A DNA stretch of 52,139 nt from an uncultured Clostridium sp. (GCA_902464345.1 CABQJA010000001.1:1-52139), one strand, 5' to 3'; shown: positions 1 to 29,474, counted from the first letter of the stretch. Notes: generated from the sequence alone by a model not told the origin. A program made the numbers and translations.

Positions 1-498
1 GGTATATTGATTCTGGCAGTGATATTTGATCTTCGGACATATCGGATTCCGAATCTTCTGACACTGATCGGTGTTCTGATCAGTGCGGGTGGCAGCTTCT
101 GTATAAGAGGAAGCGGCGGATTACCGGGTATTCTTGCAGGGATAGGGATTCCGATGATAGCTTTGTTTTTGTTACATCGGGTTCGGGTACTGGGAGCCGG
201 AGATATTAAGTTGCTAACTGTCATAGGAGGAGCAGCGGGGATGGAAGTCCTGCATGTTATGCTTTACTCCTTTTTAGTCGGCGGTGCGCTGGCTATGATT
301 CATATGTTATATCACCGTAATCTGGTGAATCGTTTACAAGTATTCTGGAATTATGTTCGGACCTGTTTGATCACAGGACACATTATCCCATATGATAGCG
401 GATTTGATCGGGGAGATACCCGATACACAGTACATTTCTCCATAGCGATTCTGGCAGGATATGCTATTTGGATGATCAGGAGGTGGCTGGATTTTTGA
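1..498 (+). CDS. A24-family prepilin (Flp) peptidase, CpaA/TadV-like; probably truncated at the 5' window edge
   Basis: The frame is open from base 1. The product is a polytopic hydrophobic protein with both A24 aspartate motifs: IFDLRTYRIPN near the N-terminus and GAGDIKLL mid-protein. It is the first gene of the tad-like cluster. Confidence 0.8.
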   Translation, partial: GILILAVIFDLRTYRIPNLLTLIGVLISAGGSFCIRGSGGLPGILAGIGIPMIALFLLHRVRVLGAGDIKLLTVIGGAAGMEVLHVMLYSFLVGGALAMIHMLYHRNLVNRLQVFWNYVRTCLITGHIIPYDSGFDRGDTRYTVHFSIAILAGYAIWMIRRWLDF

Positions 499-1736: not shown

Positions 1737-1752
1737 TGAGGAGGTGCAGGTC

Positions 1753-3030
1753 ATGATGCCGGAGAATATAGATACGCTCAGTCGGGAACTGGAGGAAATG
1801 GTACGGGCGGAACTGAATATGAGAGAAGCAGTCAGTGATCTTCAGGTTCAACAGGAGATCGATCGTCAGATCCTGTTGAAGACCGGCGATTGTTATATTC
1901 CATTGAAGGAGAAGCTGGAACTAAAGGAGCGGGTATTCAGCTCGATTCGTGGGCTGGATTGTCTGGCAACGATCATGAGTCGGGAAGATATCACAGAGAT
2001 TATGATTAATAATTATCGGAAGATTTTTGTAGAACGAGACGGGCATCTGGAAAGATGGAAGGGCGGTTTTTCATCGGAAGAGAAGTACATGGATGTGATT
2101 CAGCAGGTGGCAGCGCAGTGTAATCGCATTGTAAATGAAAGCTCACCGATCGTAGACGCCAGACTTTCGGATGGCTCCAGAGTCAATGTGGTACTTGCTC
2201 CGGTTGCACTGGATGGTGCAGTTATGACGATCCGGCGGTTTCCAAAGCATAACTTTAGTGCAAAGGATCTGATCGAACGGGCAATGCTATCGGAGGAACT
2301 GACGCAGCTATTAAGACTTCTGGTCAGAAGCCGTTATAACATTCTGATATCCGGTGGCACCGGTTCCGGAAAGACCACTTTTCTGAATGTAATGGCAGAT
2401 TTCATCCCGAAGGAGGAACGTATTATTACGATCGAAGACTCCGCAGAGCTTAAGTTGCAGGCCATTGAGAATCTGGTACGGCTGGAGGTTCGGAATGCCA
2501 ATGTAGAAGGGAAAAATGCGATTCATATCAAGGATCTGATCCGAAGTTCCCTGCGGATGCGGCCGACCAGAATTATTGTCGGTGAGGTTCGGGGAGAAGA
2601 GGCACTGGATATGCTTCAGGCCATGAATACCGGACATGACGGATCGCTGTCAACGGGGCATGCCAATTCTGCAAGAGATATGTTATATCGGTTGGAAACC
2701 ATGGTTTTAATGGGAATCGAGATGCCTTTGCCGGCAATCCGGCAGCAGATAGCATCTGCCATCGACATCATTGTACATATCGGAAGATTGTCCGACGGTC
2801 GGAGAAAGGTTCTGGAAGTGGTAGAAATACTGGGAATGCAGGAAGGAGAGATAAAGCTTCATACATTGTGTAAGTACCGGAGGCGAGGACAGGAAAAGGA
2901 GGAAACAGATGAAGACTGGAGGTTTAAAGAGCCTGTCTGTCATACAGAGAAACTGGAGGCGGCAGGGTGCCTGGAAGAATATCAGGCATTATATGAAGCC
3001 GGAGTATCTGGCGGTCTGGCTTGTCGGTAG
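1753..3030 (+). CDS. cpaF: CpaF/TadA-family type IV pilus (Tad) secretion ATPase
   Basis: Motifs present: Walker A GGTGSGKTT, Asp box ITIEDSAEL, RIIVGEVRGEEA and TGHDGSLSTGHAN. GAGGAGG lies 8 nt upstream of ATG 1753. The track start, GTG 1744, abuts the SD. Confidence 0.9.
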   Translation: MMPENIDTLSRELEEMVRAELNMREAVSDLQVQQEIDRQILLKTGDCYIPLKEKLELKERVFSSIRGLDCLATIMSREDITEIMINNYRKIFVERDGHLERWKGGFSSEEKYMDVIQQVAAQCNRIVNESSPIVDARLSDGSRVNVVLAPVALDGAVMTIRRFPKHNFSAKDLIERAMLSEELTQLLRLLVRSRYNILISGGTGSGKTTFLNVMADFIPKEERIITIEDSAELKLQAIENLVRLEVRNANVEGKNAIHIKDLIRSSLRMRPTRIIVGEVRGEEALDMLQAMNTGHDGSLSTGHANSARDMLYRLETMVLMGIEMPLPAIRQQIASAIDIIVHIGRLSDGRRKVLEVVEILGMQEGEIKLHTLCKYRRRGQEKEETDEDWRFKEPVCHTEKLEAAGCLEEYQALYEAGVSGGLACR

Positions 3031-3706
3031 TCTGGTCTGTCTGGTCCTGGGATGGTTATTCTATGACTCATGGAAGATGGGACTGCTGCTATTTCCTGCA
3101 AATATATGGTTTCTGAAGTTATATGAGAAGAAGCGGCAGGAGTATCAGGCGACGTTGCTATTGAGCGAGTTCAAGGAGCTGCTGCAGATATTGACAGCGA
3201 ATCTGAAGGCAGGGGCTGCGTTAGAGCATGCATGGAAGGCAGCAGAAAGGGATTTTGCGGATTTACATACGGGAGACAGTCCGATGGATAGGGAAGCACG
3301 GAAGGTTATTCAGAAGATAGAGCTGAATATTCCGATTGAGCAGGCAATGTTTGAATTCGCAGAGGAAAGTGGTCAGGAAGATATTCTGAGTTTTGCAGAG
3401 GTGTTACGGACGGCCAAGCGAAGTGGCGGTAATCTTGTGCAGATTATGGAAAATACCACCGGAATCATAACAGAAAAAATAGAAATCGGACAGGAGATTC
3501 AGGTAATGCTGTCCGGAAAGAGGCTGGAACAGCGGATTATGTGTGGAATGCCACTTTTTATGCTGTTGTATCTGCGTATCGGCAATCCGGGATATCTGAA
3601 CGGACTATATCATAATGCGACCGGCATGCTGATCATGAGCGGTTGTATGTTGGGAACGATTCTGGCGTTCTGCTGGGGAAACCGGATTATGAGAATCGAG
3701 GTGTAG
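2993..3706 (+). CDS. tadB: TadB-like type II secretion system F-family membrane protein
   Basis: It has an N-terminal TM segment, a soluble helical T2SS-F-like region and C-terminal TM helices, and it follows cpaF. An alternative start at ATG 2909 has a strong AAGGAGG SD but would overlap cpaF by 122 nt. Confidence 0.7.
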   Translation: MKPEYLAVWLVGSLVCLVLGWLFYDSWKMGLLLFPANIWFLKLYEKKRQEYQATLLLSEFKELLQILTANLKAGAALEHAWKAAERDFADLHTGDSPMDREARKVIQKIELNIPIEQAMFEFAEESGQEDILSFAEVLRTAKRSGGNLVQIMENTTGIITEKIEIGQEIQVMLSGKRLEQRIMCGMPLFMLLYLRIGNPGYLNGLYHNATGMLIMSGCMLGTILAFCWGNRIMRIEV

Positions 3707-3710
3707 CTTT

Positions 3711-5063
3711 GTGAGCAGAAAATATACTGAGAAAACGGCAGGGCGGCTTTATCGGTGGCTGCGGGCAAACAGACTGCTTCGTGTAGAGCCGGTTCAGAAG
3801 GATCTGGTGCAGCTATATGGAGGAAATCCGACACAGACGGAGCAATTACTTCAGGACTATTATACGGAGCTGATACGTAAGACAATGCTTGCAGCTGTTG
3901 TAATAGGAATATTTGTATTGGCAGTCATCCTTATGGAAAATCTGCAGCAGACAGATGAGATTCATCTGGAACGGATGCCGTATGGAGAAGATGCAACGGA
4001 ATATTCTTTGCAGGCAGTTGAGAACGGCAATCGAAAACTGGAACTACAGGTAGAAGTACCGGCAGTGCGTTATACCGAGCAGGAACTGGAGGCACAGTTT
4101 CAAAACGGTTTTCAATATCTGGAGGAAGAAATGCCGGGAGAAAATGAAGATATGGAACAGATTACAATGGATCTGAATCTGATAAAAAGCATTCCGGAAA
4201 GCGGTATCGGTGTGCGATGGATCAGCAGTGACTATGAACTTCTGGAGGAGAATGGAACGCTTCATAATCAGACATTGAAGGTGCCGACAGAGGTTGTGCT
4301 GCAACTGGAATTATCCTATGAGGATGAGGTAAGAACCAGAGAGTATCAGCTAATGATTTATCCCGGAATACTGACCGGTGAAGCGAGGCAGAAGCAGGAA
4401 CTGGCAGAGGCTGTTTCCAGAGAGATAGAAGCCCAGCAATATGAGGCTGATATTACGCTTCCGAAGGAGATCAATGGCTATCGGATTGAGCTGCCATCTC
4501 AGACAGGAAGGGTGATTGCGGTTGTACTGACAGGAGGAATCCTGATCATGCTGATGCTTTGGATGCGAAAACGGGAAAATCTGCATCTTGAAGTAAAAAA
4601 GCGCAAGCAGAAACTGTTGATCGCCTACCCGGGATTTATGAACCAGCTACAGTTATATCTGGGAGCGGGAGCAACCGTTCAGGGTGCCCTGGAGCGTGTT
4701 ATGGAACAATATGAAAGGAACCGACAGACAACACAGGTGCTTTATCAGGAGCTGGATATTCTGCGGAATGAAATCCGTTCCGGAATCACACAGGAGGAGG
4801 CATACCTGCGACTCGGCAAAAGAACCGGTCTGGCTCCGTATATGAGGCTGGCATCATTATTAAGTCGTCAGCTCCGCACGGGTGGACAGGAGATTCGACT
4901 GCAACTGGAGGAAGAGGTGCAGGCTGCATTTACATTTCGAAAGGAGCAGGCAAAGAAGGCAGGCGAAGAGGCAGGTACGAAGATGCTGTTGCCTATGATC
5001 CTGTTAATGATCATTTCGATGGTGGTAATCATAATTCCGGCATGGAAGGATTTTGCTTTGTGA
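3711..5063 (+). CDS. tadC: TadC-like type II secretion system F-family membrane protein with an extended N-terminal region
   Basis: The start is GTG, after GAGGTG. The C-terminal ~170 aa are T2SS-F-like (LQLYLGAGATVQGALERV, terminal TM LLPMILLMIISMVVIIIP). One central TM segment is present. The gene follows tadB. Confidence 0.7.
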   Translation: MSRKYTEKTAGRLYRWLRANRLLRVEPVQKDLVQLYGGNPTQTEQLLQDYYTELIRKTMLAAVVIGIFVLAVILMENLQQTDEIHLERMPYGEDATEYSLQAVENGNRKLELQVEVPAVRYTEQELEAQFQNGFQYLEEEMPGENEDMEQITMDLNLIKSIPESGIGVRWISSDYELLEENGTLHNQTLKVPTEVVLQLELSYEDEVRTREYQLMIYPGILTGEARQKQELAEAVSREIEAQQYEADITLPKEINGYRIELPSQTGRVIAVVLTGGILIMLMLWMRKRENLHLEVKKRKQKLLIAYPGFMNQLQLYLGAGATVQGALERVMEQYERNRQTTQVLYQELDILRNEIRSGITQEEAYLRLGKRTGLAPYMRLASLLSRQLRTGGQEIRLQLEEEVQAAFTFRKEQAKKAGEEAGTKMLLPMILLMIISMVVIIIPAWKDFAL

Positions 5064-5111: not shown

Positions 5112-5294
5112 ATGGAAGAAATCAAGGACTTTTTAATGGGTGAACACTCAGAAGATGGTATGGGTGTGGTAGAGGTATTATTGATCATTGTTGTTCTGGT
5201 CGGACTGGTTATTATTTTTCAGAAGCAGATTACGCAGCTGGTAAATAAGATCTGGAAAGCAATCAACAGAGATGCAGCTACCGTATATAAGTAA
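5112..5294 (+). CDS. flp: Flp-family type IVb pilin precursor
   Basis: The 60-aa product has a charged leader ending SEDG, followed by MGVVEVLLIIVVLVGLVIIF. This fits the G|xxxxE(V/Y) processing motif plus a hydrophobic helix. GGAAGGAG SD upstream. It lies immediately downstream of tadC. Confidence 0.75.
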   Translation: MEEIKDFLMGEHSEDGMGVVEVLLIIVVLVGLVIIFQKQITQLVNKIWKAINRDAATVYK

Positions 5295-5311: not shown

Positions 5312-6856
5312 ATGAGAGGAATGCAGAATAAAGGACAGATCACGGTGTTTGTATGTTTGATCGTATGTGTGTTTCTGATACTGATACTTACAGTTTTGCA
5401 GGGAATACGCATCCGGGAAGGAAAAGCGAAATGCAGTCAGTCGGTTTCTGCGGCCTGTAGAAGTATAAAGGGTGATTATCAGCCGGACCTGTTCCGGCGA
5501 TATCACATCCTTGCTCTGGATAAGACATATTACGGAAAGGGAGAAGGCTTTTTGGAGCAAAGAATAGAGGACTTTCTGGAATATAATCTGGAGCCGGATA
5601 AGACACCCTATCATTTCCGGGTACAGGAGGTAGTGCTGACAGACAGTCAGTCATTAACGGAGGATTCTCTAAAGGGATTTCGTCAGCAGATTCATGAGTA
5701 TATGAAGCTTCGGGTTCCGCAGCTGGTGATAGAAAGGATACTGCAAAAGACAGAGTCCGGTCAGAAGCTGGATCGAGATGCTGTGCAGCAGGAACTGGAA
5801 GATCAGTCTGAGCATACGGTGACGATAGAACCCGGACAGGCAATGAATGGACAGAATCAGAATATATCTGTGGAGACCATTGGAGATTCGGTTACGGAAA
5901 CAGAAGACGGAGAAGCAATGATAGATCCGAGAGGGGCAATGAAGCTATTGCTCGGCATGGATATTCTGGATCTGGTTCTTCCGGATAAGGTGATGGCAAT
6001 ATCCACAGAAACCGTAAGACTGAAGGAAATGCCGTCTGCAGAGTATCCAACATCGGGCAAGGGATTTTGGATATTTGAAGGTGACGATCTCGGACTTTCG
6101 GATATGGCAGATGTATTTAAGCAGGAGACATTCTGGAATGATATTGGAGGTCTGACGGCCGGTGGAGATGATAATGGTCAGGGTGGTTATAGACCGGAAG
6201 CTGCGTTGTATGCGATAGATACCTTTCAGAATGCGACCAATTGGGACGGTGAGAATAATCAGCTGCTGGAATTTGAAGTGGAGTATCTGCTTGCCGGAAA
6301 GGAGTCGGATCATAAGAATTTATCACAGGTAGCTACGCAATTGTCCTGGATCCGGTTTATTCCCAATATGTGCTATGCCTGTAGCAACCAGACAATGAAG
6401 GATGAGACATTGGCAGTAGCAACACTGCTGCTTACACCGGTTGGACTGGTAGAACTGGCAGAACCGGTATCCTATATCATTCTGGGAGGCTGGTCCTATG
6501 GTGAGAGTCTGGTAGATGTAAAGGCATTGTTGCATGGGAAAACAGTTCCGGTTACCAAGGACGAAACAACCTGGAGTCTATCTTTGCGGAATCTTGCTGA
6601 CATTAGTCAGATATCCGGAAAAGAATGTGACGATAGTCGGGGATTACGGTATGAGGAGTATTTATTTCTGATGCTGGCATTACAGGACACCGAGCTACAG
6701 TGTTACCGGATGTTGGATGTGATGCAGGTGAATATTCAGGAGACCATACCGGAATTTGAAATAAAGAACTGTATTGTAAGCTTTGAAGTGCAGGTGACCG
6801 TGCGGGAGGACAACCGGCAATGGCATTTTCAGGCTTCAGACGGATATATAGAATAA
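5312..6856 (+). CDS. Large Tad-associated membrane-anchored protein (DUF5702-like by recollection); function unknown
   Basis: AGGAGG SD upstream. The N-terminus MRGMQNKG|QITVFVCLIVCVFLILIL resembles a pseudopilin leader plus TM. The rest is a large acidic extracytoplasmic region with no catalytic motif that I recognise. Confidence 0.6.
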   Translation: MRGMQNKGQITVFVCLIVCVFLILILTVLQGIRIREGKAKCSQSVSAACRSIKGDYQPDLFRRYHILALDKTYYGKGEGFLEQRIEDFLEYNLEPDKTPYHFRVQEVVLTDSQSLTEDSLKGFRQQIHEYMKLRVPQLVIERILQKTESGQKLDRDAVQQELEDQSEHTVTIEPGQAMNGQNQNISVETIGDSVTETEDGEAMIDPRGAMKLLLGMDILDLVLPDKVMAISTETVRLKEMPSAEYPTSGKGFWIFEGDDLGLSDMADVFKQETFWNDIGGLTAGGDDNGQGGYRPEAALYAIDTFQNATNWDGENNQLLEFEVEYLLAGKESDHKNLSQVATQLSWIRFIPNMCYACSNQTMKDETLAVATLLLTPVGLVELAEPVSYIILGGWSYGESLVDVKALLHGKTVPVTKDETTWSLSLRNLADISQISGKECDDSRGLRYEEYLFLMLALQDTELQCYRMLDVMQVNIQETIPEFEIKNCIVSFEVQVTVREDNRQWHFQASDGYIE

Positions 6857-6893
6857 TTAGCGGAAATCGGTAGAAGAAGAGAGGTGTTTTGAA

Positions 6894-7967
6894 ATGTATA
6901 CCGGCTCATCAAATTATCACAGAAGCCTGTCAGGGATGCACAAAAAGACAGGTGGGTCAAAGCAGAGGCAGAAGATCTCAAAAAATAAGAAAAAGTTATC
7001 GCTTTGTTACAGGACTCCGTTCGGAAGTAACCGGTATGGCCGGATATTTCTGGAAGATCTGATACTTCTGAATCAGGACCGGATTGTGAAAGCCCCCCCG
7101 GTGAGTCAGTATACAGTTCAAAGCACCTCTGCAGATGAGGAGAAATCAGAGGAAACAGCAACAGAAAATCAAGATTTAAAAAATCAGGATCTGAAAAATC
7201 ATGGGTGGAAAAATCAGGGCTCTGCTACTCTGGAGGTGACGCTGATTCTTCCGATATTACTGTTTGCTCTCTGGATGTTTTATTCTATGGGGCAGATTTT
7301 TATCATGGAAAATCAGATTTACCAGGCGGTAAATAATACCGCTGACAGTATGGCGGAGACTGCGTACCTGAAACAGGTAGTTGAAGAAGGAATAGAAGTA
7401 GAGGGGAGCCGTGTTTTAGACTGGGGAGAAGCCTTTCTGCAATTTCGGACATTCCTTGGTGAGAACGAGAGAGTAGAACGGTATGTATTTGGCGGAAGAA
7501 ACGGGATTCTGCTGGATGGCACTCCGGTCCTGGATGAAGAAGGATTTATCTGCATTGGGGTAAAATATCTGGTGCGAATACAGGCACCGTTTTTTCGAAG
7601 TATCCATGTGCCTGTTCAGGCACACATCCGACAAAAGGCATATGTAGGATACGTGAAATCGGAGGATCCGACAGATCAGACATATGTATACGTGGCAGAG
7701 CATAGTACGGTTTATCATCTGAGCAGGAGCTGCAGCCATTTAAAGCTGACAATCTATACAGTATCATCAGCGGTATTAGATGAGAATTATCCCGGCCTGC
7801 GGGCATGTGAATATTGCGGAGAGAGGCCGGCGGATATTTATTATGTTACACCGACCGGGGATTGCTATCATACATCCAGAGAATGCAGTGGATTAAAGCG
7901 GACGGTTCGCCGTGTGTTGAAAAGTGAAGTGCCGGGATACGCTCCTTGTTCCAGATGCGGATCCTGA
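6894..7967 (+). CDS. TadE-like pseudopilin with a long repeat-containing leader and a C-terminal duplicated H-C-C-C motif domain
   Basis: WKNQG|SATLEVTLILPILLFALWMFY matches the TadE N-terminal motif at aa 105-130. The C-terminus carries two copies of YHxSRxCSxLK...CxxC. The start is uncertain: ATG 6894 with a GAGAGG SD, or GTG 7086. Confidence 0.65.
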   Translation: MYTGSSNYHRSLSGMHKKTGGSKQRQKISKNKKKLSLCYRTPFGSNRYGRIFLEDLILLNQDRIVKAPPVSQYTVQSTSADEEKSEETATENQDLKNQDLKNHGWKNQGSATLEVTLILPILLFALWMFYSMGQIFIMENQIYQAVNNTADSMAETAYLKQVVEEGIEVEGSRVLDWGEAFLQFRTFLGENERVERYVFGGRNGILLDGTPVLDEEGFICIGVKYLVRIQAPFFRSIHVPVQAHIRQKAYVGYVKSEDPTDQTYVYVAEHSTVYHLSRSCSHLKLTIYTVSSAVLDENYPGLRACEYCGERPADIYYVTPTGDCYHTSRECSGLKRTVRRVLKSEVPGYAPCSRCGS

Positions 7968-8018
7968 GCATGAAATGAAGATACAGTCAGAAACGGAGGC
8001 AAAGACAGAAGCAGGATG

Positions 8019-8233
8019 GTGAATAGCAATAGAAAAGCCGACAGGAGTAGAACGGTAGATAGAAACGAAAAAGCCGACAGGAGCAGAACGGTGGATAGAA
8101 ACGAAAAAGCCGGCAGGAGTAGAATTATGAACAGAAACGAAGAGGCAGGTGGGATAGAACCGTGAATAGAACCGGAAATACAAGTAAGTGTAGAACCGAG
8201 GATAGAAGCAGGAAGCCGCACAGAAATAGAAAT
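8019..8233 (+). repeat. 36-bp tandem repeat, about 6 copies (copy 4 is 35 bp), spanning the intergenic region and the 5' end of the next pseudopilin gene
   Basis: Units start at 8019, 8055, 8091, 8127, 8162 and 8198. The consensus is roughly GTGGATAGAAACGAAAAAGCCGACAGGAGCAGAACG. Units 1-3 each carry AGGAG followed 7-8 nt later by GTA, GTG or ATG. Confidence 0.9.
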
Positions 8234-8560
8234 CAGGGGAGCACGATCATAGAGGTGACATTAATTATGAGTCTGGTTCTGGTTGTGATTTTTCTGATAC
8301 TGACCATGCTGCTTGGCGTGTGGAAGCAGGCAGAGGCACATGCAGATATGATGACTGTGGAACAGGACGAGACTGCACAGCAGGATCATGAGATTTGTAC
8401 AGAGGTTGCCGGGGATCGGATCATATATTCAAAAAAGGTATGTGTGGAGCTGGTGCGGGGATACGCAGTTAAGAGCAGAGAGTACCAGATTGAGCGGAAT
8501 ACAGAGACAGAGCAGCGCTTAAGGAGGTGGCAGTTATTTGGAAACCTGTTATCAGACTGA
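8162..8560 (+). CDS. Small TadE-like (possibly DUF4320-like) pseudopilin
   Basis: RNRNQG|STIIEVTLIMSLVLVVIFLIL fits the G|xxxxEV motif plus TM. The GTG start lies 8 nt after AGGTGGG. The leader is encoded by repeat units 5-6. Confidence 0.7.
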   Translation: MNRTGNTSKCRTEDRSRKPHRNRNQGSTIIEVTLIMSLVLVVIFLILTMLLGVWKQAEAHADMMTVEQDETAQQDHEICTEVAGDRIIYSKKVCVELVRGYAVKSREYQIERNTETEQRLRRWQLFGNLLSD

Positions 8561-9896
8561 AGGTTTTCGGCAGTATATGGTTCTGAAGGGAGAAAGTAAG
8601 GATGTCGATGACTTTCAATTAAATATGTTGATGCGATATGAAGGAAGTGGATTATTGCCATTAGAAATCCAGGGCTGTGACGGACAGTTTCAGATCGCAT
8701 ATGATACCAAGGGGACACAGACATTATCACAGATGAGTGAAGAGCAGGAGCTTGACTTTCCTGTATTGCGGCAGCTGTTTACAGATTTATGGAACTGCTA
8801 TAAGGAGATGGAAGAATATCTGCTCCCTTTGGAGGGGATTCTGACAGCACCGGAGATGATATATTACCATGCCGGAAAAAGGCGGTTTCGGTTCTGCTTT
8901 CGGATGGGAGGTCAGGGGGAGTTTCATGCCTCTCTGATCATGCTGGTGGAGTTCTGCATGAAACACACCCGGCATCAGGATACGGAAGCCGTTATGTATA
9001 TATACGGATTATACCGGCTGTTACAGGAAGAAACAGCCGGTATAGAAGAGGTACAATGCTTTCTGGAGAATATGGAGAAGCAGATGAAGAAGGAACCGGA
9101 TGATATAGGTCTTGTTATGAACGCAAAGAGGAGTAATGAGCCGGAAAGAGAAGAAATCGGAAAAACAGAGGGACCGGATGCAACACAGAGGGCAGAAAGG
9201 ACGGAGGAGATAAGCAGAGAAACCGATGGGAAAAAGGTATGGATATACAGAATACTCACCGGATTTTCTCTGATTGCTGTCGTCATTTATGCTTGGCGAT
9301 ACTGGGTGTTTCTGGGTTATGACCGCGATTGTAAATTTATGATATTCAGCATGATCCTGTTTTTATTTTTCCTTTACAGTACGATAAAACTCCGGCGCAG
9401 GCAGAATAGACATAAGGTTCAACAGAGGGCAGAGGAGTCCGGAGAAGAAAGACGGGAAAAAGAAAAAACGGGAGAGGGACTCCATAGATCGGTGGTAGAG
9501 CTGGTGGAGCCATTATCCGGAGAAACCGGTGTTATAGGGAGAATATATGATGGGGAGACCGGGCTGATACAGGTGACCGGGCAGGATGCGTGGCAGCTAA
9601 AGGGAGCGGGAACGCAGGATATTTTGTTGAAGGCACTGCCCGGAATCATTGGTCGATCCAATCTGGCTGAGTACCCATTGGAGGAAACGGGGATTAGTCG
9701 GAAGCACGCCCGTGTATTTCAGCAGGATGGTGAGCTTTATATCGAGGATCTGGCATCTACAAATGGTACCTACTGTAATGGCAGACGGATCTCCAGAGGG
9801 AAACCGGTGCGGCTGGAAGAAGGTACCAGACTGGTGCTGGGAGCAAACCATTACATTGTTGAAAAGGTTAAGAAACATTGTGGGAGCAATGTCTGA
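8538..9896 (+). CDS. Membrane-spanning FHA-domain protein (N-terminal DUF6382-like domain, two TM segments, C-terminal FHA)
   Basis: The C-terminus IGRSNLAEYPLEETGISRKHARVFQQDGELYIEDLASTNGTYCNGRRI is a canonical FHA signature (GR..., SR.H, N-G). TM segments: ILTGFSLIAVVIYAWRYWVF and FMIFSMILFLFFLYSTI. TTG start 8 nt after AAGGAGGTGG, overlapping the upstream gene by 23 nt. Confidence 0.8.
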   Translation: METCYQTEGFRQYMVLKGESKDVDDFQLNMLMRYEGSGLLPLEIQGCDGQFQIAYDTKGTQTLSQMSEEQELDFPVLRQLFTDLWNCYKEMEEYLLPLEGILTAPEMIYYHAGKRRFRFCFRMGGQGEFHASLIMLVEFCMKHTRHQDTEAVMYIYGLYRLLQEETAGIEEVQCFLENMEKQMKKEPDDIGLVMNAKRSNEPEREEIGKTEGPDATQRAERTEEISRETDGKKVWIYRILTGFSLIAVVIYAWRYWVFLGYDRDCKFMIFSMILFLFFLYSTIKLRRRQNRHKVQQRAEESGEERREKEKTGEGLHRSVVELVEPLSGETGVIGRIYDGETGLIQVTGQDAWQLKGAGTQDILLKALPGIIGRSNLAEYPLEETGISRKHARVFQQDGELYIEDLASTNGTYCNGRRISRGKPVRLEEGTRLVLGANHYIVEKVKKHCGSNV

Positions 9897-25706: not shown

Positions 25707-26942
25707 CTACTCATATCGTTCATCAATAACACGTTTTGACTTCTTTTCGCTTCGTGGCAGGACGCCCAGTTCAACGACCTTGACTAACGGTGTGAAGCCG
25801 ATCTTGCTCTTAACAGTGGCGGCAATGTGGTCACTTAATTCCAGGAAGTCGACACTGCCGTTGGTCTCTACATAGATACGCAGAGTATCCTTGCCATCCA
25901 GATGGGAAATACGGATCTGGTACTCACTGGATACCTCAGGGAACTGACGCAGAATCTCTTCAATCTGGCTAGGGAATACATTGACACCCTTAATCTTCAT
26001 CATATCATCGGTACGGCCCATAATGACATCCAGACGAGGGAAGTGACTGCCGCAAGGACATTCACCGGGAATGATCCGGGACAGGTCATGTGTACGGTAA
26101 CGGATCAGAGGTGCACCCTCCTTTACCAGCGTGGTGATAACGATCTCACCCATCTCGCCGTCCGGCACCGGAGCACCTGTTTCAGGATCAATGATCTCAA
26201 TGTAAACGTAATCATCCCAATAGTGCATGCCGCAGTCGTGCTGGCAGCTGATGCCGATGCCGGGACCGTAGATCTCGGTCAGACCATAAATATCATATAA
26301 TTCAATGCCAAGCTCGGAAGATATTCTCTGACGCATCTTGGCACCCCAGCGCTCCGAACCGATGACACCCTTCTTCAGATGGATCTTGTCCTTGATACCA
26401 CGTTTCTCGATTTCTTCTGCCAGTAGCAATGCATAAGAAGAAGTAGAGCATAGAACAGAGCTCTTCATATCCATCATCATCTGCAGCTGCTTATCGGTAT
26501 TGCCGGGACCCATTGGGATAACCATGGCACCGAGCTTTTCGGCACCGTTCTGGAATCCGATACCTGCAGTCCAGAGACCGTAGCCCGGAGTTACCTGAAT
26601 ACGATCCAGATTGGTAATGCCCGCCATCTCATAGCAACGCTTGAACATGATTGCCCAGTCGTCAACATCCTTGGCAGTATAAGGAATAATGATCGGGAGA
26701 CCGGTGGTGCCGGAGGAAGAATGGATCCGGACGATTTTCTCTTCAGGAGCGGTCATTAATCCGAGCGGATATGCTTCCCGTAAATCCTTTTTCTCAGAGA
26801 ATGGGAGCTGTTCAAAATCCTCTGCAGAAGAAATCTTTGAAATGCCTGCTTCATGCAGCTTCTTTCCATAGAAGCTGTCAGCAGAAATCAGAGCTTCAAT
26901 CTGCTTATTAACATGTGCAATTTGTGTTTCTGTAATCTTCAT
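25707..26942 (-). CDS. paaK: Phenylacetate-CoA ligase family protein (PaaK-like adenylate-forming enzyme)
   Basis: Motifs HSSSGTTGLPI, YGLTE and KIKGVNVFPSQIE. It lies downstream of iorAB. Confidence 0.85.
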   Translation of the reverse strand: MKITETQIAHVNKQIEALISADSFYGKKLHEAGISKISSAEDFEQLPFSEKKDLREAYPLGLMTAPEEKIVRIHSSSGTTGLPIIIPYTAKDVDDWAIMFKRCYEMAGITNLDRIQVTPGYGLWTAGIGFQNGAEKLGAMVIPMGPGNTDKQLQMMMDMKSSVLCSTSSYALLLAEEIEKRGIKDKIHLKKGVIGSERWGAKMRQRISSELGIELYDIYGLTEIYGPGIGISCQHDCGMHYWDDYVYIEIIDPETGAPVPDGEMGEIVITTLVKEGAPLIRYRTHDLSRIIPGECPCGSHFPRLDVIMGRTDDMMKIKGVNVFPSQIEEILRQFPEVSSEYQIRISHLDGKDTLRIYVETNGSVDFLELSDHIAATVKSKIGFTPLVKVVELGVLPRSEKKSKRVIDERYE

Positions 26943-27002: not shown

Positions 27003-27074
27003 TGCAATAATGCTATTTACTGCAATAGCGTCATCGGTTGTAATAATGCTATCTGCGGCAATAGCATTGTCTGT
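27003..27074 (-). repeat. Two copies of a 36-nt tandem repeat, each folding into a stem-loop in the iorB-paaK intercistronic RNA
   Basis: In + strand coordinates: GCTATT(27012-17)/AATAGC(27024-29), and AATGCTAT(27045-52)/ATAGCATT(27061-68). The two 36-mers match at about 28 of 36 positions. Confidence 0.8.
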
Positions 27075-27085
27075 TGAAATATTGC

Positions 27086-27658
27086 TTACCGGCTGTAATC
27101 GAGTGCTCGGAAGTTTAACTCATGGAACCGTTCCGGCAAGGTACGCCGGATGGCATCCTTGATATCCTCTTCGGTAAGACCGATCTCTCCGGTACGGATA
27201 GCGGCACCGAGCAGAACCATATTTAATACTTTAGCAGAGCCAATCGCCCGGCAGGCGGCATCGCCGTCAACCAGAGTCAGGTTCGGCACCTGGGCCTTCA
27301 GGTATTCGATCATTTCCTCACTATGGTAGGAGGCACCCTGCAATGTGGCAGTTACCGGCTGGATGGCACGGATGCTGACAACTACGTGGCCACCCTTGCG
27401 TAAGAATGGAAGCATACGGACAGTTTCTCCCGGTTCAAAGCCGAGGATCATGTCTGCTGTTCCGCTTTGGATCATTGGAGAATAGAGATTATCACCTAAG
27501 CGCAGATGGCTGAAAACACTTCCGCCACGCTGTGCCATACCAATCGTTTCTGCACTCATAACCGAAATGTTTTTCGCCATGGCGGCTGAGGCAATCAGCT
27601 TGGAAGCAAGCACGGTTCCCTGACCGCCGACTCCGCACAACAGAATATTCTTATTCAT
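27086..27658 (-). CDS. iorB: Indolepyruvate:ferredoxin oxidoreductase subunit beta
   Basis: N-terminus MNKNILLCGVGGQGTVLAS. Its ATG overlaps the iorA stop (ATGAATAA). The upstream extension in the ORF track is spurious. Confidence 0.85.
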   Translation of the reverse strand: MNKNILLCGVGGQGTVLASKLIASAAMAKNISVMSAETIGMAQRGGSVFSHLRLGDNLYSPMIQSGTADMILGFEPGETVRMLPFLRKGGHVVVSIRAIQPVTATLQGASYHSEEMIEYLKAQVPNLTLVDGDAACRAIGSAKVLNMVLLGAAIRTGEIGLTEEDIKDAIRRTLPERFHELNFRALDYSR

Positions 27659-29474
27659 GATCGTCACCTCCTGTAATCGCATGTACCGGGCATACCTGGC
27701 TACATAATGTACAGCCGGTGCAGAGAGAGGAATCAATCTGTACCTGACCGTCATGGATCACAATGGCAGGACAGCCTAATTCCCGGATACATTTCTTGCA
27801 GTTGATACAGGTATCTGTTTCAACGTGCAGCGGTTTATCCGGCTTTGTGATCGCGATGCAAGGGGACTTGAAGATAATCGCCTTGACACCCGGTTCTGCA
27901 GCAACCCGTTTCACGCAGTCAACGGAAGCCTCCAGATTCAAAGGATTCATGGTCTCTACGGTAGTCAGGCCGATTCCGCGCAGAACGGCTTCAATGCTGA
28001 CCTTGGCAACGATTTCACCCATCATGGTGTGACCGGTGCCGGGATGCGGCTGGTGTCCGGTCATTGCAGTTGTGGAATTATCCAGTACGATCAGAACCAT
28101 ATTAGCCTGATTATAGACTGCATTTACAACACCGGTGATCGCAGATGCGAAGAAGGTGGAATCACCGACGAAGGCGAAACAGGTGGTATCCGGTTCTATC
28201 CGGCCGACACCCTGTGCAATATTTAATCCGGCACCCATGCACAGACAGGTATCAACCATATCTAACGGCATGGCATTGCCGAGTGTGTAGCAGCCGATAT
28301 CACCGCAGAAAATAGTCTTTTTGCCCTGCATAGCCTTCTTTACGGCATAGAAGGAAGCACGATGAGGACAGCCGCTGCATAAAACAGGCGGGCGGACCGG
28401 AAGCTCCGGTGGAGTCGGAAGAGTCTCTGTTTCCGGAAGCGGAAGCTCCAGAAAGCGGTAGAGACAGGCACTTACACTGTCACGGGTGTTTTCACCTGCA
28501 TTTGCTACATGATGTGTCAGCTTGCCGAGGATCTTCACAGGCAGCTGATACTTTCCACAGATGTAAGTAAGCTCACGTTCGATAACCGGATCCAGTTCTT
28601 CGATACACAGAACCTCATCCAGCCCCTCCAGAAACCGGACAGCCAGCTGCTCCGGAAACGGATGCGGAGTGGCGACCTTCAGAGTCCGGTACATACCGAT
28701 CGTCTGCATGGTTTCCATGGTATATGTAAAGCTGATGCCACCGGTTGCGATTCCTCTGCGGACATCGGCATGCTCCGGTGCGGCAGGCAGGATCTGATTT
28801 CTGGAATAAGAGGAGAAATCTTCTGCCAGAGTCACATTCCGGGCCTCGATCTTCTGATGGTTGGCATAGGATAGACGTGGAAAAATGACCCAGCGCTTAG
28901 AGTCCTTGATAAAACCATCCGGTGTATGGATCTGATATTCGGATTCATCCTTTACGGTAATGGAAGCGTAGCCGTGGCAGACGCGAGTAGTCGGCCGGAG
29001 GAAGACCGGTGTTCCGTATTTCTCGGAATACTCATAAGCCTCCTGTACCATCTCATAGGCTTCCTGTGCGGATGACGGATCAAAGCACGGGAGCTTGGAA
29101 AAGGCGGCAAAGTGTCGGGTGTCCTGCTCGGTCTGAGAGGAGATCGGACCCGGATCATCCGCTACCAGAATGATCATACCGCCTTTGATACCGACATATT
29201 CAAGGCTCATTAAAGGATCGGAAGCGACATTTAATCCGACCTGTTTCATAGTAACCATAGTTCTGGCACCACTGTAGGAGGCTCCGGCAGCCAGCTCAAG
29301 AGCGGCTTTCTCATTAACCGACCATTCTACATATGTGTGCTCCGGGCGATGCTTGGCAATGGTTTCCAATACTTCTGTGGATGGTGTGCCCGGATATCCG
29401 GCCACCAGATTGACTCCGGAAGCAATGGCGCCCATAGCAATGGCAGCATTTCCCATTAAAAATTCGTTGTGCAT
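27651..29474 (-). CDS. iorA: Indolepyruvate:ferredoxin oxidoreductase subunit alpha (TPP- and 4Fe-4S-binding)
   Basis: N-terminus GNAAIAMGAIASGVNLVAGYPGTPSTE. TPP motif GDSTFFASA...N. Two C-terminal CxxCxxCxxxCP ferredoxin motifs. Confidence 0.9.
   Translation of the reverse strand: MHNEFLMGNAAIAMGAIASGVNLVAGYPGTPSTEVLETIAKHRPEHTYVEWSVNEKAALELAAGASYSGARTMVTMKQVGLNVASDPLMSLEYVGIKGGMIILVADDPGPISSQTEQDTRHFAAFSKLPCFDPSSAQEAYEMVQEAYEYSEKYGTPVFLRPTTRVCHGYASITVKDESEYQIHTPDGFIKDSKRWVIFPRLSYANHQKIEARNVTLAEDFSSYSRNQILPAAPEHADVRRGIATGGISFTYTMETMQTIGMYRTLKVATPHPFPEQLAVRFLEGLDEVLCIEELDPVIERELTYICGKYQLPVKILGKLTHHVANAGENTRDSVSACLYRFLELPLPETETLPTPPELPVRPPVLCSGCPHRASFYAVKKAMQGKKTIFCGDIGCYTLGNAMPLDMVDTCLCMGAGLNIAQGVGRIEPDTTCFAFVGDSTFFASAITGVVNAVYNQANMVLIVLDNSTTAMTGHQPHPGTGHTMMGEIVAKVSIEAVLRGIGLTTVETMNPLNLEASVDCVKRVAAEPGVKAIIFKSPCIAITKPDKPLHVETDTCINCKKCIRELGCPAIVIHDGQVQIDSSLCTGCTLCSQVCPVHAITGGDDHE

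Follow-up and report, generated by a model that had tools for sequence, protein, structure and literature searches.

We analyzed a 52,139-nucleotide (nt) stretch of DNA from an uncultured Clostridium sp. (the window, a term used here for the whole stretch) and, within it, an array of six head-to-tail units at the 5′ end of the second pseudopilin gene of a Tad/Flp pilus operon. We consider the array to be a species-specific and unstable minisatellite that arose from a duplicated translation-initiation module, and the pseudopilin gene to be intact and to start at GTG 8162; we give this explanation a probability of roughly 70%. The evidence lies in the anatomy of the array, its polymorphism between strains, its restriction to one species, the neutral evolution of its upstream part, and the conservation of the start module at 8162. 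The effect of such a tolerated minisatellite on translation is most likely modest at best.

Anatomy of the array and its alleles

The six units lie within positions 8019–8233, start at 8019, 8055, 8091, 8127, 8162, and 8198, and measure 36, 36, 36, 35, 36, and 36 nt in order. Their unit-phase translation runs into QG|STIIEV, where the bar marks the predicted cleavage site of the pseudopilin. The units, their coordinates and translations, and the short fourth unit had been described from the DNA alone (hereafter the sequence-only reading); all of them were reproduced, and the codon-phased periodicity was borne out. The autocorrelation at a lag of 36 nt over 7975–8240 gave z = 9.2 against dinucleotide shuffles. 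Tandem Repeats Finder reported a repeat with a period of 36 at 8033–8124 (2.6 copies, 92% matches) and another with a period of 72 at 8004–8141, and an independent repeat search returned five in-register copies with spacings of 36, 36, 35, and 36 nt, in a family (D1) that begins at 8004. The unit had no copy elsewhere in the 52-kb window, and no inverted repeats were found in 7900–8300.

Units 1–3 (8019–8126, plus strand) are near-identical, with 28–31 identities over 36 positions, and are the young copies in the array. The sequence AGGAG occurs at 8043–8047, 8079–8083, and 8115–8119, followed 7 nt later by GTA 8055, GTG 8091, and ATG 8127, respectively. Unit 4 (8127–8161, plus strand), whose length of 35 nt follows from the spacing and a gapped alignment, breaks the frame between the upstream units and the pseudopilin and supplies the Shine-Dalgarno (SD) site of GTG 8162. 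The weak units still match the consensus of units 1–3, with p < 0.0005 for unit 4 (0 of 2000 shuffles), p = 0.0005 for unit 5, and p < 0.0005 for unit 6. At the left edge of the array, a degenerate unit 0 (7983–8018, plus strand) holds ATG 8016; its similarity to the consensus is marginal (p = 0.03), and its homologue in a sister species (L011) is the one intergenic module present there.

To compare strains, exact look-ups with the pseudopilin, the upstream pseudopilin, and the Flp pilin supplied the locus from approximately 30 public assemblies, and a genome scan added one more; 23–24 contigs each were examined for the pseudopilin and for Flp, which have 66 and 111 indexed blocks, respectively. 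Ten distinct alleles, spanning the last codons of the upstream gene to the EVTLIM codons of the pseudopilin, were recovered. The window haplotype, represented by the window and about 15 records, has six units. Five units were found in six records, which comprise all of the diverged lineages (L012, L013, L019, and L147) and the near-identical haplotypes L003 and L007. The six-unit and five-unit alleles differ by one 36-nt indel within units 1–3, and L003 and L007 retain different variants at one polymorphic site, which suggests recurrent events. The copy number thus differs among strains of one species (6, 5, and 2 units), as the sequence-only reading had anticipated, and together with the periodicity this identifies the array as a minisatellite. 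The record L019 (CAVFXS010000063.1) is labelled 'Bacteroidales bacterium H4'; its locus is the same Clostridia/Lachnospiraceae-type Tad operon, with a pseudopilin 92% identical to that of the window, and the bin is probably mislabelled or contaminated.

The two-unit alleles (L143 and L148) carry an in-register deletion of 143 nt (36 + 36 + 35 + 36) with endpoints in GAAA 8032–8035 (unit 1, positions 14–17) and GAAA 8175–8178 (unit 5). Since 143 equals 2 modulo 3, the upstream ATG equivalent to 8016 regains the frame of the pseudopilin, and the resulting leader is MMNSNRNTSKCRTEDRSRKPHRNRNQG|S (27 amino acids, aa). We favour the view that this allele is the product of a deletion and not the ancestral state, because in its single hybrid unit the 5′ portion comes from unit 1 and the 3′ portion, fused in register, from unit 5, and because it lacks the GGCAGGT segment of the SD site that the array alleles and the sister species have in common. 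Every allele observed leaves the pseudopilin translatable.

The 35-nt unit 4 was the same in all of the approximately 21 array-bearing records, which come from different samples and include lineages that have diverged by about 6% at synonymous sites (proportion of synonymous differences, pS, ~0.06). Because it is identical across independent assemblies and diverged lineages, it is not a sequencing error, and the suggestion that this copy had been mis-sequenced does not hold. A sequencing or assembly artefact behind the short unit has a negligible probability: the same unit recurs across studies, assemblers, and diverged lineages, and it lies outside any homopolymer run.

Start of translation and origin of the unit

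The open reading frame (ORF) from GTG 8162 to 8560 (plus strand) encodes 132 aa. Between 8162 and the G|S site, the frame contains no further ATG, GTG, or TTG, so that GTG 8162 is the only canonical in-frame start upstream of this site in the window, in agreement with the earlier claim that the annotated gene can start nowhere else. Its SD region, GAGGCAGGTGGG, occupies 8142–8153 (plus strand), with the core AGGTG (8147–8151) 10 nt before the start. The predicted pairing with the anti-SD sequence, calculated with an assumed canonical Firmicute 16S rRNA 3′ tail and not with that of this genome, was −11.8 kcal/mol for GTG 8162, compared with −5.6 for ATG 8016, −8.4 for GTG 8091, and −7.8 for ATG 8127; the other genes of the pilus operon gave −10 to −15 kcal/mol. 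The module GG(C/T)AGGTGGG-N8-GTG, with C or T at 8146, was kept in all array alleles, and its flanks change freely. From these data, we infer that ribosomes start at GTG 8162.

The first 26 codons (8162–8239, plus strand) consist of units 5 and 6 followed by CAG GGG and end with Gly before the predicted prepilin peptidase site. The encoded leader, MNRTGNTSKCRTEDRSRKPHRNRNQG|S, is hydrophilic, basic, and Gly-terminated. Class III signal peptides are hydrophilic, basic leaders of 6–26 aa that end in Gly (PMC4471445), and a leader of 26 aa is at the upper end of this range. The mature protein (8240–8560, plus strand) begins with STIIEVTLIMSLVLVVIFLILTMLLGVW and has Glu5 and a long hydrophobic helix. 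In our alignment A1, G26, S27, and E31 (Glu5 of the mature protein) were invariant, and Glu5 lies within a hydrophobic tract of about 21 residues. These features indicate that prepilin peptidase probably cleaves at QG|STIIEV, and the enzyme is presumed to be the A24 peptidase encoded at 7–498 in the same operon.

The mature part gave pN/pS values (proportions of nonsynonymous and synonymous differences) of 0.016/0.070 against L012, 0.020/0.085 against L019, and 0.050/0.321 against L011, with ratios of approximately 0.16–0.24. These values indicate purifying selection on the mature part, and the pseudopilin gene is not a pseudogene. In regards to family membership, the Pfam TadE model (PF07811) matched the window protein at residues 26–57, the expected N-terminal helix, with 14.3 bits and E = 0.047, below the gathering cut-off of 22.9 bits. 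Four of ten family members matched at E ≤ 0.1 (best E = 0.018), and none of the ten reached the cut-off. Because of this score, the protein is called TadE-like by its motif and context and not as a formal Pfam member.

An internal ATG at 8267, in the conserved EVTLIM motif, is preceded by AGAGGTGA (−10.1 kcal/mol; 8252–8269 in the window and 7497–7515 in L143 and L148). Gene callers use this ATG in L143 and L148 and thereby obtain a 97-aa protein with no signal peptide, a call that is likely to be a systematic mis-annotation of the deletion alleles.

The origin of the unit can be read from the sister species L011, in which pS is approximately 0.35 and the mature pseudopilin is 90% identical to that of the window. 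Its locus has a 46-nt spacer, a single module, an 8-aa leader, and no array. The module reads ...GAAATAGAAAGGCAGGTAAAAACT GTG GAC AGA AAT AGA AAT CAG GGG|AGC, its SD element is AAGGCAGGT-N7-GTG, and its SD site has GGCAGGT in common with that of the window. The first 12 nt of the unit (GTG GAT AGA AAC) match the start and first leader codons of L011, and the 3′ half (GCCGRCAGGAG-N7, or GGCAGGTGGG-N8 in unit 4) matches the SD site and spacer (GGCAGGT-N7). Because both halves match the initiation region of L011, each 36-nt unit is a copy of a translation-initiation region together with the first leader codons, and it is for this reason that nearly every unit opens with GTG, GTA, or ATG and has an AGGAG-like site 7 nt before the next. 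Of the three readings offered from the sequence alone, that of several SD-plus-start modules thus best describes the anatomy and origin of the array, L011 having a single such module.

The array is restricted to one species. Clostridium sp. CAG:632 and its relatives have the leader MRKGSRERNAG|S, the leaders MKDNRG|S and MQEKKKGKNRG|S were found in two metagenome-assembled Lachnospiraceae genomes, and none of these loci has an array; together with that of L011, these leaders are 6–11 aa long. The absence of any array from the orthologues outside the species speaks against the coding-leader reading, which had itself named this as the finding that would overturn it.

Taken together, we propose the following course of events. 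A tandem duplication would have copied the SD site, the 7-nt spacer, the GTG, and the first codons of a basic x-D/N-R-N leader. The pseudopilin would now be translated from GTG 8162, the start copy of unit 5, with the strong SD site of the 35-nt unit 4, and the product would be a pre-pseudopilin with a 26-aa, two-unit leader that A24 prepilin peptidase may cut at QG|STIIEV. Units 0–4 would be left-over copies of the module that read as a 49-codon upstream ORF, whose peptide would have no function of its own. Ribosomes that initiate upstream would stop at TGA 8163–8165, atop the real start, and may add some reinitiation as a by-product. The array would be tolerated, given that the mature protein no longer carries the leader and that the intergenic spacer is free of constraint, and slippage or unequal recombination between units would keep altering it.

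Alternative readings of the array

Several points weigh against this explanation. The unit length is divisible by three and the 143-nt deletion rescues the upstream ATG in frame, both of which also fit a leader that was once translated from the whole array. The tail assumed for the pairing energies is a further such point. The SD core of GTG 8162, at 10 nt, is farther from the start than is optimal, and the AGGAG sequences before GTG 8091 and ATG 8127 are ideally spaced at 7 nt. From this difference in spacing, some initiation on the upstream ORF is likely; substantial initiation there, and hence a real effect on pseudopilin translation, is possible. Furthermore, two more polymorphic purine-rich arrays in the operon (1620–1737 and 7165–7201) might hint that the instability is more than accidental.

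The alternative that survives best is that an in-frame leader of about 60–75 aa once extended from ATG 8016 or GTG 8019, that a 1-nt deletion in unit 4 later broke it, and that translation then came to start at the internal GTG (Val) of unit 5. The present state would be the same and its history different; we regard this alternative as possible, at odds clearly below even. The length of the unit is in its favour, as is the fact that the array's own frame over 8016–8165 is interrupted by a single stop (TGA 8163–8165). Other members of the family, like the first pseudopilin, have in-frame leader repeats as well, and because the first pseudopilin has an N-terminal extension of about 108 aa, long extensions are evidently tolerated in this operon. 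The sequence-only reading had supposed that a leader of about 75 aa might persist in other strains; none of the alleles recovered has the whole array in frame, and a fused 181-aa query against 5.8 billion proteins gave nine matches, none of which covers the upstream part. The in-frame form is thus missing from both the extant alleles and the protein databases. Moreover, the units contain SD-like sequence, which would be expected if the duplicated segment held non-coding DNA upstream of a start, and the youngest units (1–3), which still vary, are on the upstream side of the frameshift, which places the recent expansion, at least, outside the pseudopilin ORF.

A somewhat less probable alternative, and one we consider unlikely, is that the array serves as a regulatory upstream ORF or ribosome-loading platform. 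Translation would start at GTG 8091 and ATG 8127, stop at TGA 8163–8165, and reinitiate at GTG 8162; reinitiation would set a low level of the minor pilin, and the copy number would tune it. The ORF in question, of 49 codons and covering units 1–4 (8016–8165, plus strand, with internal starts GTG 8091 and ATG 8127), is present as claimed from ATG 8016 to TGA 8165, and its stop (8163–8165) overlaps GTG 8162–8164. The AGGAG-N7-start modules and the GTGA overlap therefore exist in the window, the SD site of 8162 is sub-optimally spaced, and the purine-rich region is unstructured: its minimum free energy of −31.1 kcal/mol lies above the mean of the shuffles, −35.1 kcal/mol (z = +1.13), which makes it slightly less stable than they are.

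The comparison between strains and species is at odds with this regulatory function. In L019, the TGA is changed to TGG, and the upstream ORF reads on for approximately 85 nt within the pseudopilin gene. No upstream ORF exists at all in L143 and L148, whose pseudopilin gene is still intact, or in any other species examined. Twelve substitution events occurred in 8016–8161 across the alleles, of which nine were nonsynonymous and three synonymous in the frame of the upstream ORF, approximately the neutral expectation; the peptide and most of the sequence thus evolve neutrally. In none of the complete loci examined was the upstream ORF called as a gene. Since the peptide is neutral, the stop is lost in L019, and the ORF is absent from L143, L148, and the other species, we think that the upstream ORF is best regarded as a side effect of the repeat. 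An earlier proposal of coupling through the GTGA overlap was right about the arrangement in the window; the arrangement is not conserved, and the peptide of the upstream ORF shows no purifying selection. An incidental coupling effect in the window's allele is possible, as distinct from a conserved device, and the array probably lacks a regulatory role.

Searches for other signals agree with this picture. The fold (z = +1.13) rules out a structured leader or riboswitch, and no Rfam family was found for the region at a permissive threshold or for the whole window at the gathering threshold. A promoter and terminator scan of 6800–8700 gave only a 9/12 promoter-like match inside unit 3, which was not above shuffles, and no terminator in the array. 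Two ORFs on the minus strand (117 aa, 7868–8221; 96 aa, 7893–8183) were rejected as Leu/Ser/Phe-rich read-throughs of the pyrimidine-rich complement that no assembly calls.

A more speculative idea, to which we assign a low probability, is that the array acts as a cassette for tuning translation initiation. Slippage would shift the pseudopilin between two initiation contexts, namely a strong SD site and GTG behind a variable upstream ORF, and, after the 143-nt deletion, a weak SD site and ATG with no upstream ORF. If this were true, the cassette and the arrays at 1620–1737 (upstream of the ATPase gene) and 7165–7201 (in the leader of the first pseudopilin) would vary the dosage of the Tad pilus and the stoichiometry of its minor pilins, and would constitute a minisatellite-based contingency system that acts on translation and not on the reading frame.

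A programmed −1 ribosomal frameshift, or transcriptional slippage, that joins the 49-codon ORF to the pseudopilin to give a 75-aa leader is highly improbable: the two ORFs do overlap in a −1 relationship and the two changes seen in L012 and L013, at 8137 and 8146, leave the pilin-frame codons synonymous, but two substitutions carry no statistical weight, a strong and conserved SD site and GTG lie exactly at the junction, no stimulatory structure is predicted, and the absence of a slippery heptamer from the overlap (8120–8165), with no X XXY YYZ found by inspection of the frame-0 codons of 8115–8165 and a longest A run of 5, led us to reject it.

Operon context, related repeats, and comparison with known systems

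The ORF calls and Pfam matches identify the first 10 kb of the window as a Gram-positive Tad/Flp pilus operon. In order, these 10 kb hold the A24 prepilin peptidase (7–498, plus strand; PF01478, E = 1.2e-11), followed by a 383-aa protein that has no Pfam match (468–1619), a T2SSE ATPase (1744–3030), two T2SSF proteins (2909–3706 and 3711–5063), an Flp pilin (Flp1_like, 5112–5294), and a DUF5702 protein (5312–6856). The first TadE-like pseudopilin (357 aa, 6894–7967, plus strand; TadE E = 4e-4) has a G|SATLEV site after a long N-terminal extension; it is followed by the second pseudopilin behind the array and by a DUF6382-FHA protein (8538–9896). By exact look-up, the second pseudopilin is present in many gut metagenome assemblies, and genome collections yielded Clostridium sp. 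CAG:632 and metagenome-assembled Lachnospiraceae genomes as relatives.

As for the family of this pseudopilin, a profile search through 1.84 billion cluster representatives gave only 75 relatives at E ≤ 0.001. The G|x motif was present in 78 of the 81 sequences compared, and the called leaders of these 78 had a median length of 11 aa; the few leaders longer than 30 aa, most of which have a nearer internal Met, are probably over-called. Two distant, unrelated members of the family also carry tandem repeats in leader-coding DNA. The repeat of L152 (143–200; 15 nt, 3.3 copies, 94% matches) encodes MTRSSRLTSSRLTSSRLTNRG|S, with SSRLT three times, and that of L153 (2569–2610; 15 nt, 2.8 copies, 81% matches) encodes ...RKVNQRKIHQRKANRRNRNKG|S, with xNQRK three times. 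A scan of JGI metagenomes with the exact unit-5 pattern gave no match, and a degenerate pattern for the EVTLIM codons gave at least 119 matches, all of which, among the matches listed, were chance matches when translated.

The first pseudopilin has a 15-nt repeat of its own at 7165–7201, which encodes ENQDLKNQDLKNHGWKNQG just before its G|S site. Compared with L015 and L020, this repeat is an insertion specific to the species, and its copy number varies: the protein of L147 is 5 residues longer (362 against 357 aa). The N-terminal extension before G|SATLEV (6894–7220) is approximately 108 aa long, far above the canonical 6–26 aa, and is kept as an ORF across species: its length is 92 aa in the group of Clostridium sp. 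CAG:632, and L021 and L022 have it too. When compared with L015, the extension gave a pS of 0.29, much below that of the mature part (0.78).

Because L152, L153, and the first pseudopilin also carry repeats, repeat expansion in a cleaved leader is recurrent and evidently tolerated. The statement that the array would be unusual for a TadE-family gene was therefore only partly true and was overstated: a leader of 26 aa is still canonical, and two other members have repeats in their leader DNA. What is special here is that the duplicated segment took in the start codon and the SD site and that one unit lost a base.

In regards to known systems, the second pseudopilin resembles the Tad/Flp pseudopilins (TadE and TadF of Aggregatibacter, which are processed by TadV) in its hydrophilic, basic, Gly-ending class III leader, its Glu5, and its approximately 21 hydrophobic residues, and in an operon that also encodes an Flp pilin, an A24 peptidase, a T2SSE ATPase, and TadB/C-like proteins; the cleavage is a prediction in the present case. 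It differs from them in having a leader made of two 12-aa repeat units behind four out-of-frame copies and in scoring below the Pfam TadE threshold. As in other bacterial minisatellites, the 36-nt units are head to tail, their number is polymorphic between strains, and deletions and duplications are in register. Unlike them, the unit copies the initiation region of the gene itself, so that each copy has a potential ribosome-binding site and start codon, and a single 35-nt unit divides a non-coding from a coding part.

The overlap of the upstream TGA with GTG 8162 is reminiscent of translational coupling by stop/start overlap (ATGA or GTGA). Here, however, what lies upstream is no gene but an ORF that the repeat has produced and that is not conserved, and the overlap is absent from L019, L143, L148, and the other species. 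In Beggiatoaceae, arrays of the heptamer TAACTGA form genome-wide 7-nt direct repeats just 5′ of many start codons, and an effect on translation has been suggested (PMC4679880). The present array similarly consists of tandem direct repeats immediately 5′ of a start codon, whereas its 36-nt unit is confined to a single locus, has its origin in the gene it precedes, and has no further copy in the window. A strain-variable repeat tract at the 5′ end of a gene for a surface structure is also a feature of simple-sequence contingency loci. The array does not form an ON/OFF switch of the kind that underlies phase variation, because changes of 36 nt keep the frame, units 1–3 lie outside the ORF, and all observed alleles are translatable.

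For annotation, these results mean that the frameshift is a fixed natural feature, that the gene is intact from GTG 8162, and that no correction is needed. The locus also provides a clean natural case in which duplication of an initiation region moved the start codon with no loss of function. The cleaved leader of a prepilin appears as a permissive site for repeat expansion, with independent cases in three or more members of the family and in the adjacent pseudopilin. The array belongs with the bacterial minisatellites located at the 5′ ends of genes, and the content of its unit is uncommon; it calls for no new mechanism and opens no long-standing question. The pseudopilin array and the two other arrays of the operon could be used as strain markers for this gut species.

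The purine-rich tandem array at 1620–1737 (periods of 14, 28, and 42) fills the gap between the genes for the 383-aa protein and the T2SSE ATPase. Its length is hypervariable among strains of the species: 103 nt of it are missing from most of them (L142, L144, and L151), L143 and L148 are intermediate, and the window has the longest form. Elsewhere in the window, a 36-nt tandem repeat of 2.2 copies (27006–27086, minus strand) lies between the minus-strand genes 27086–27754 and 25707–26942. Its sequence is unrelated to that of the pseudopilin array, and each of its units contains a short hairpin (AATGCTAT...ATAGCATT).

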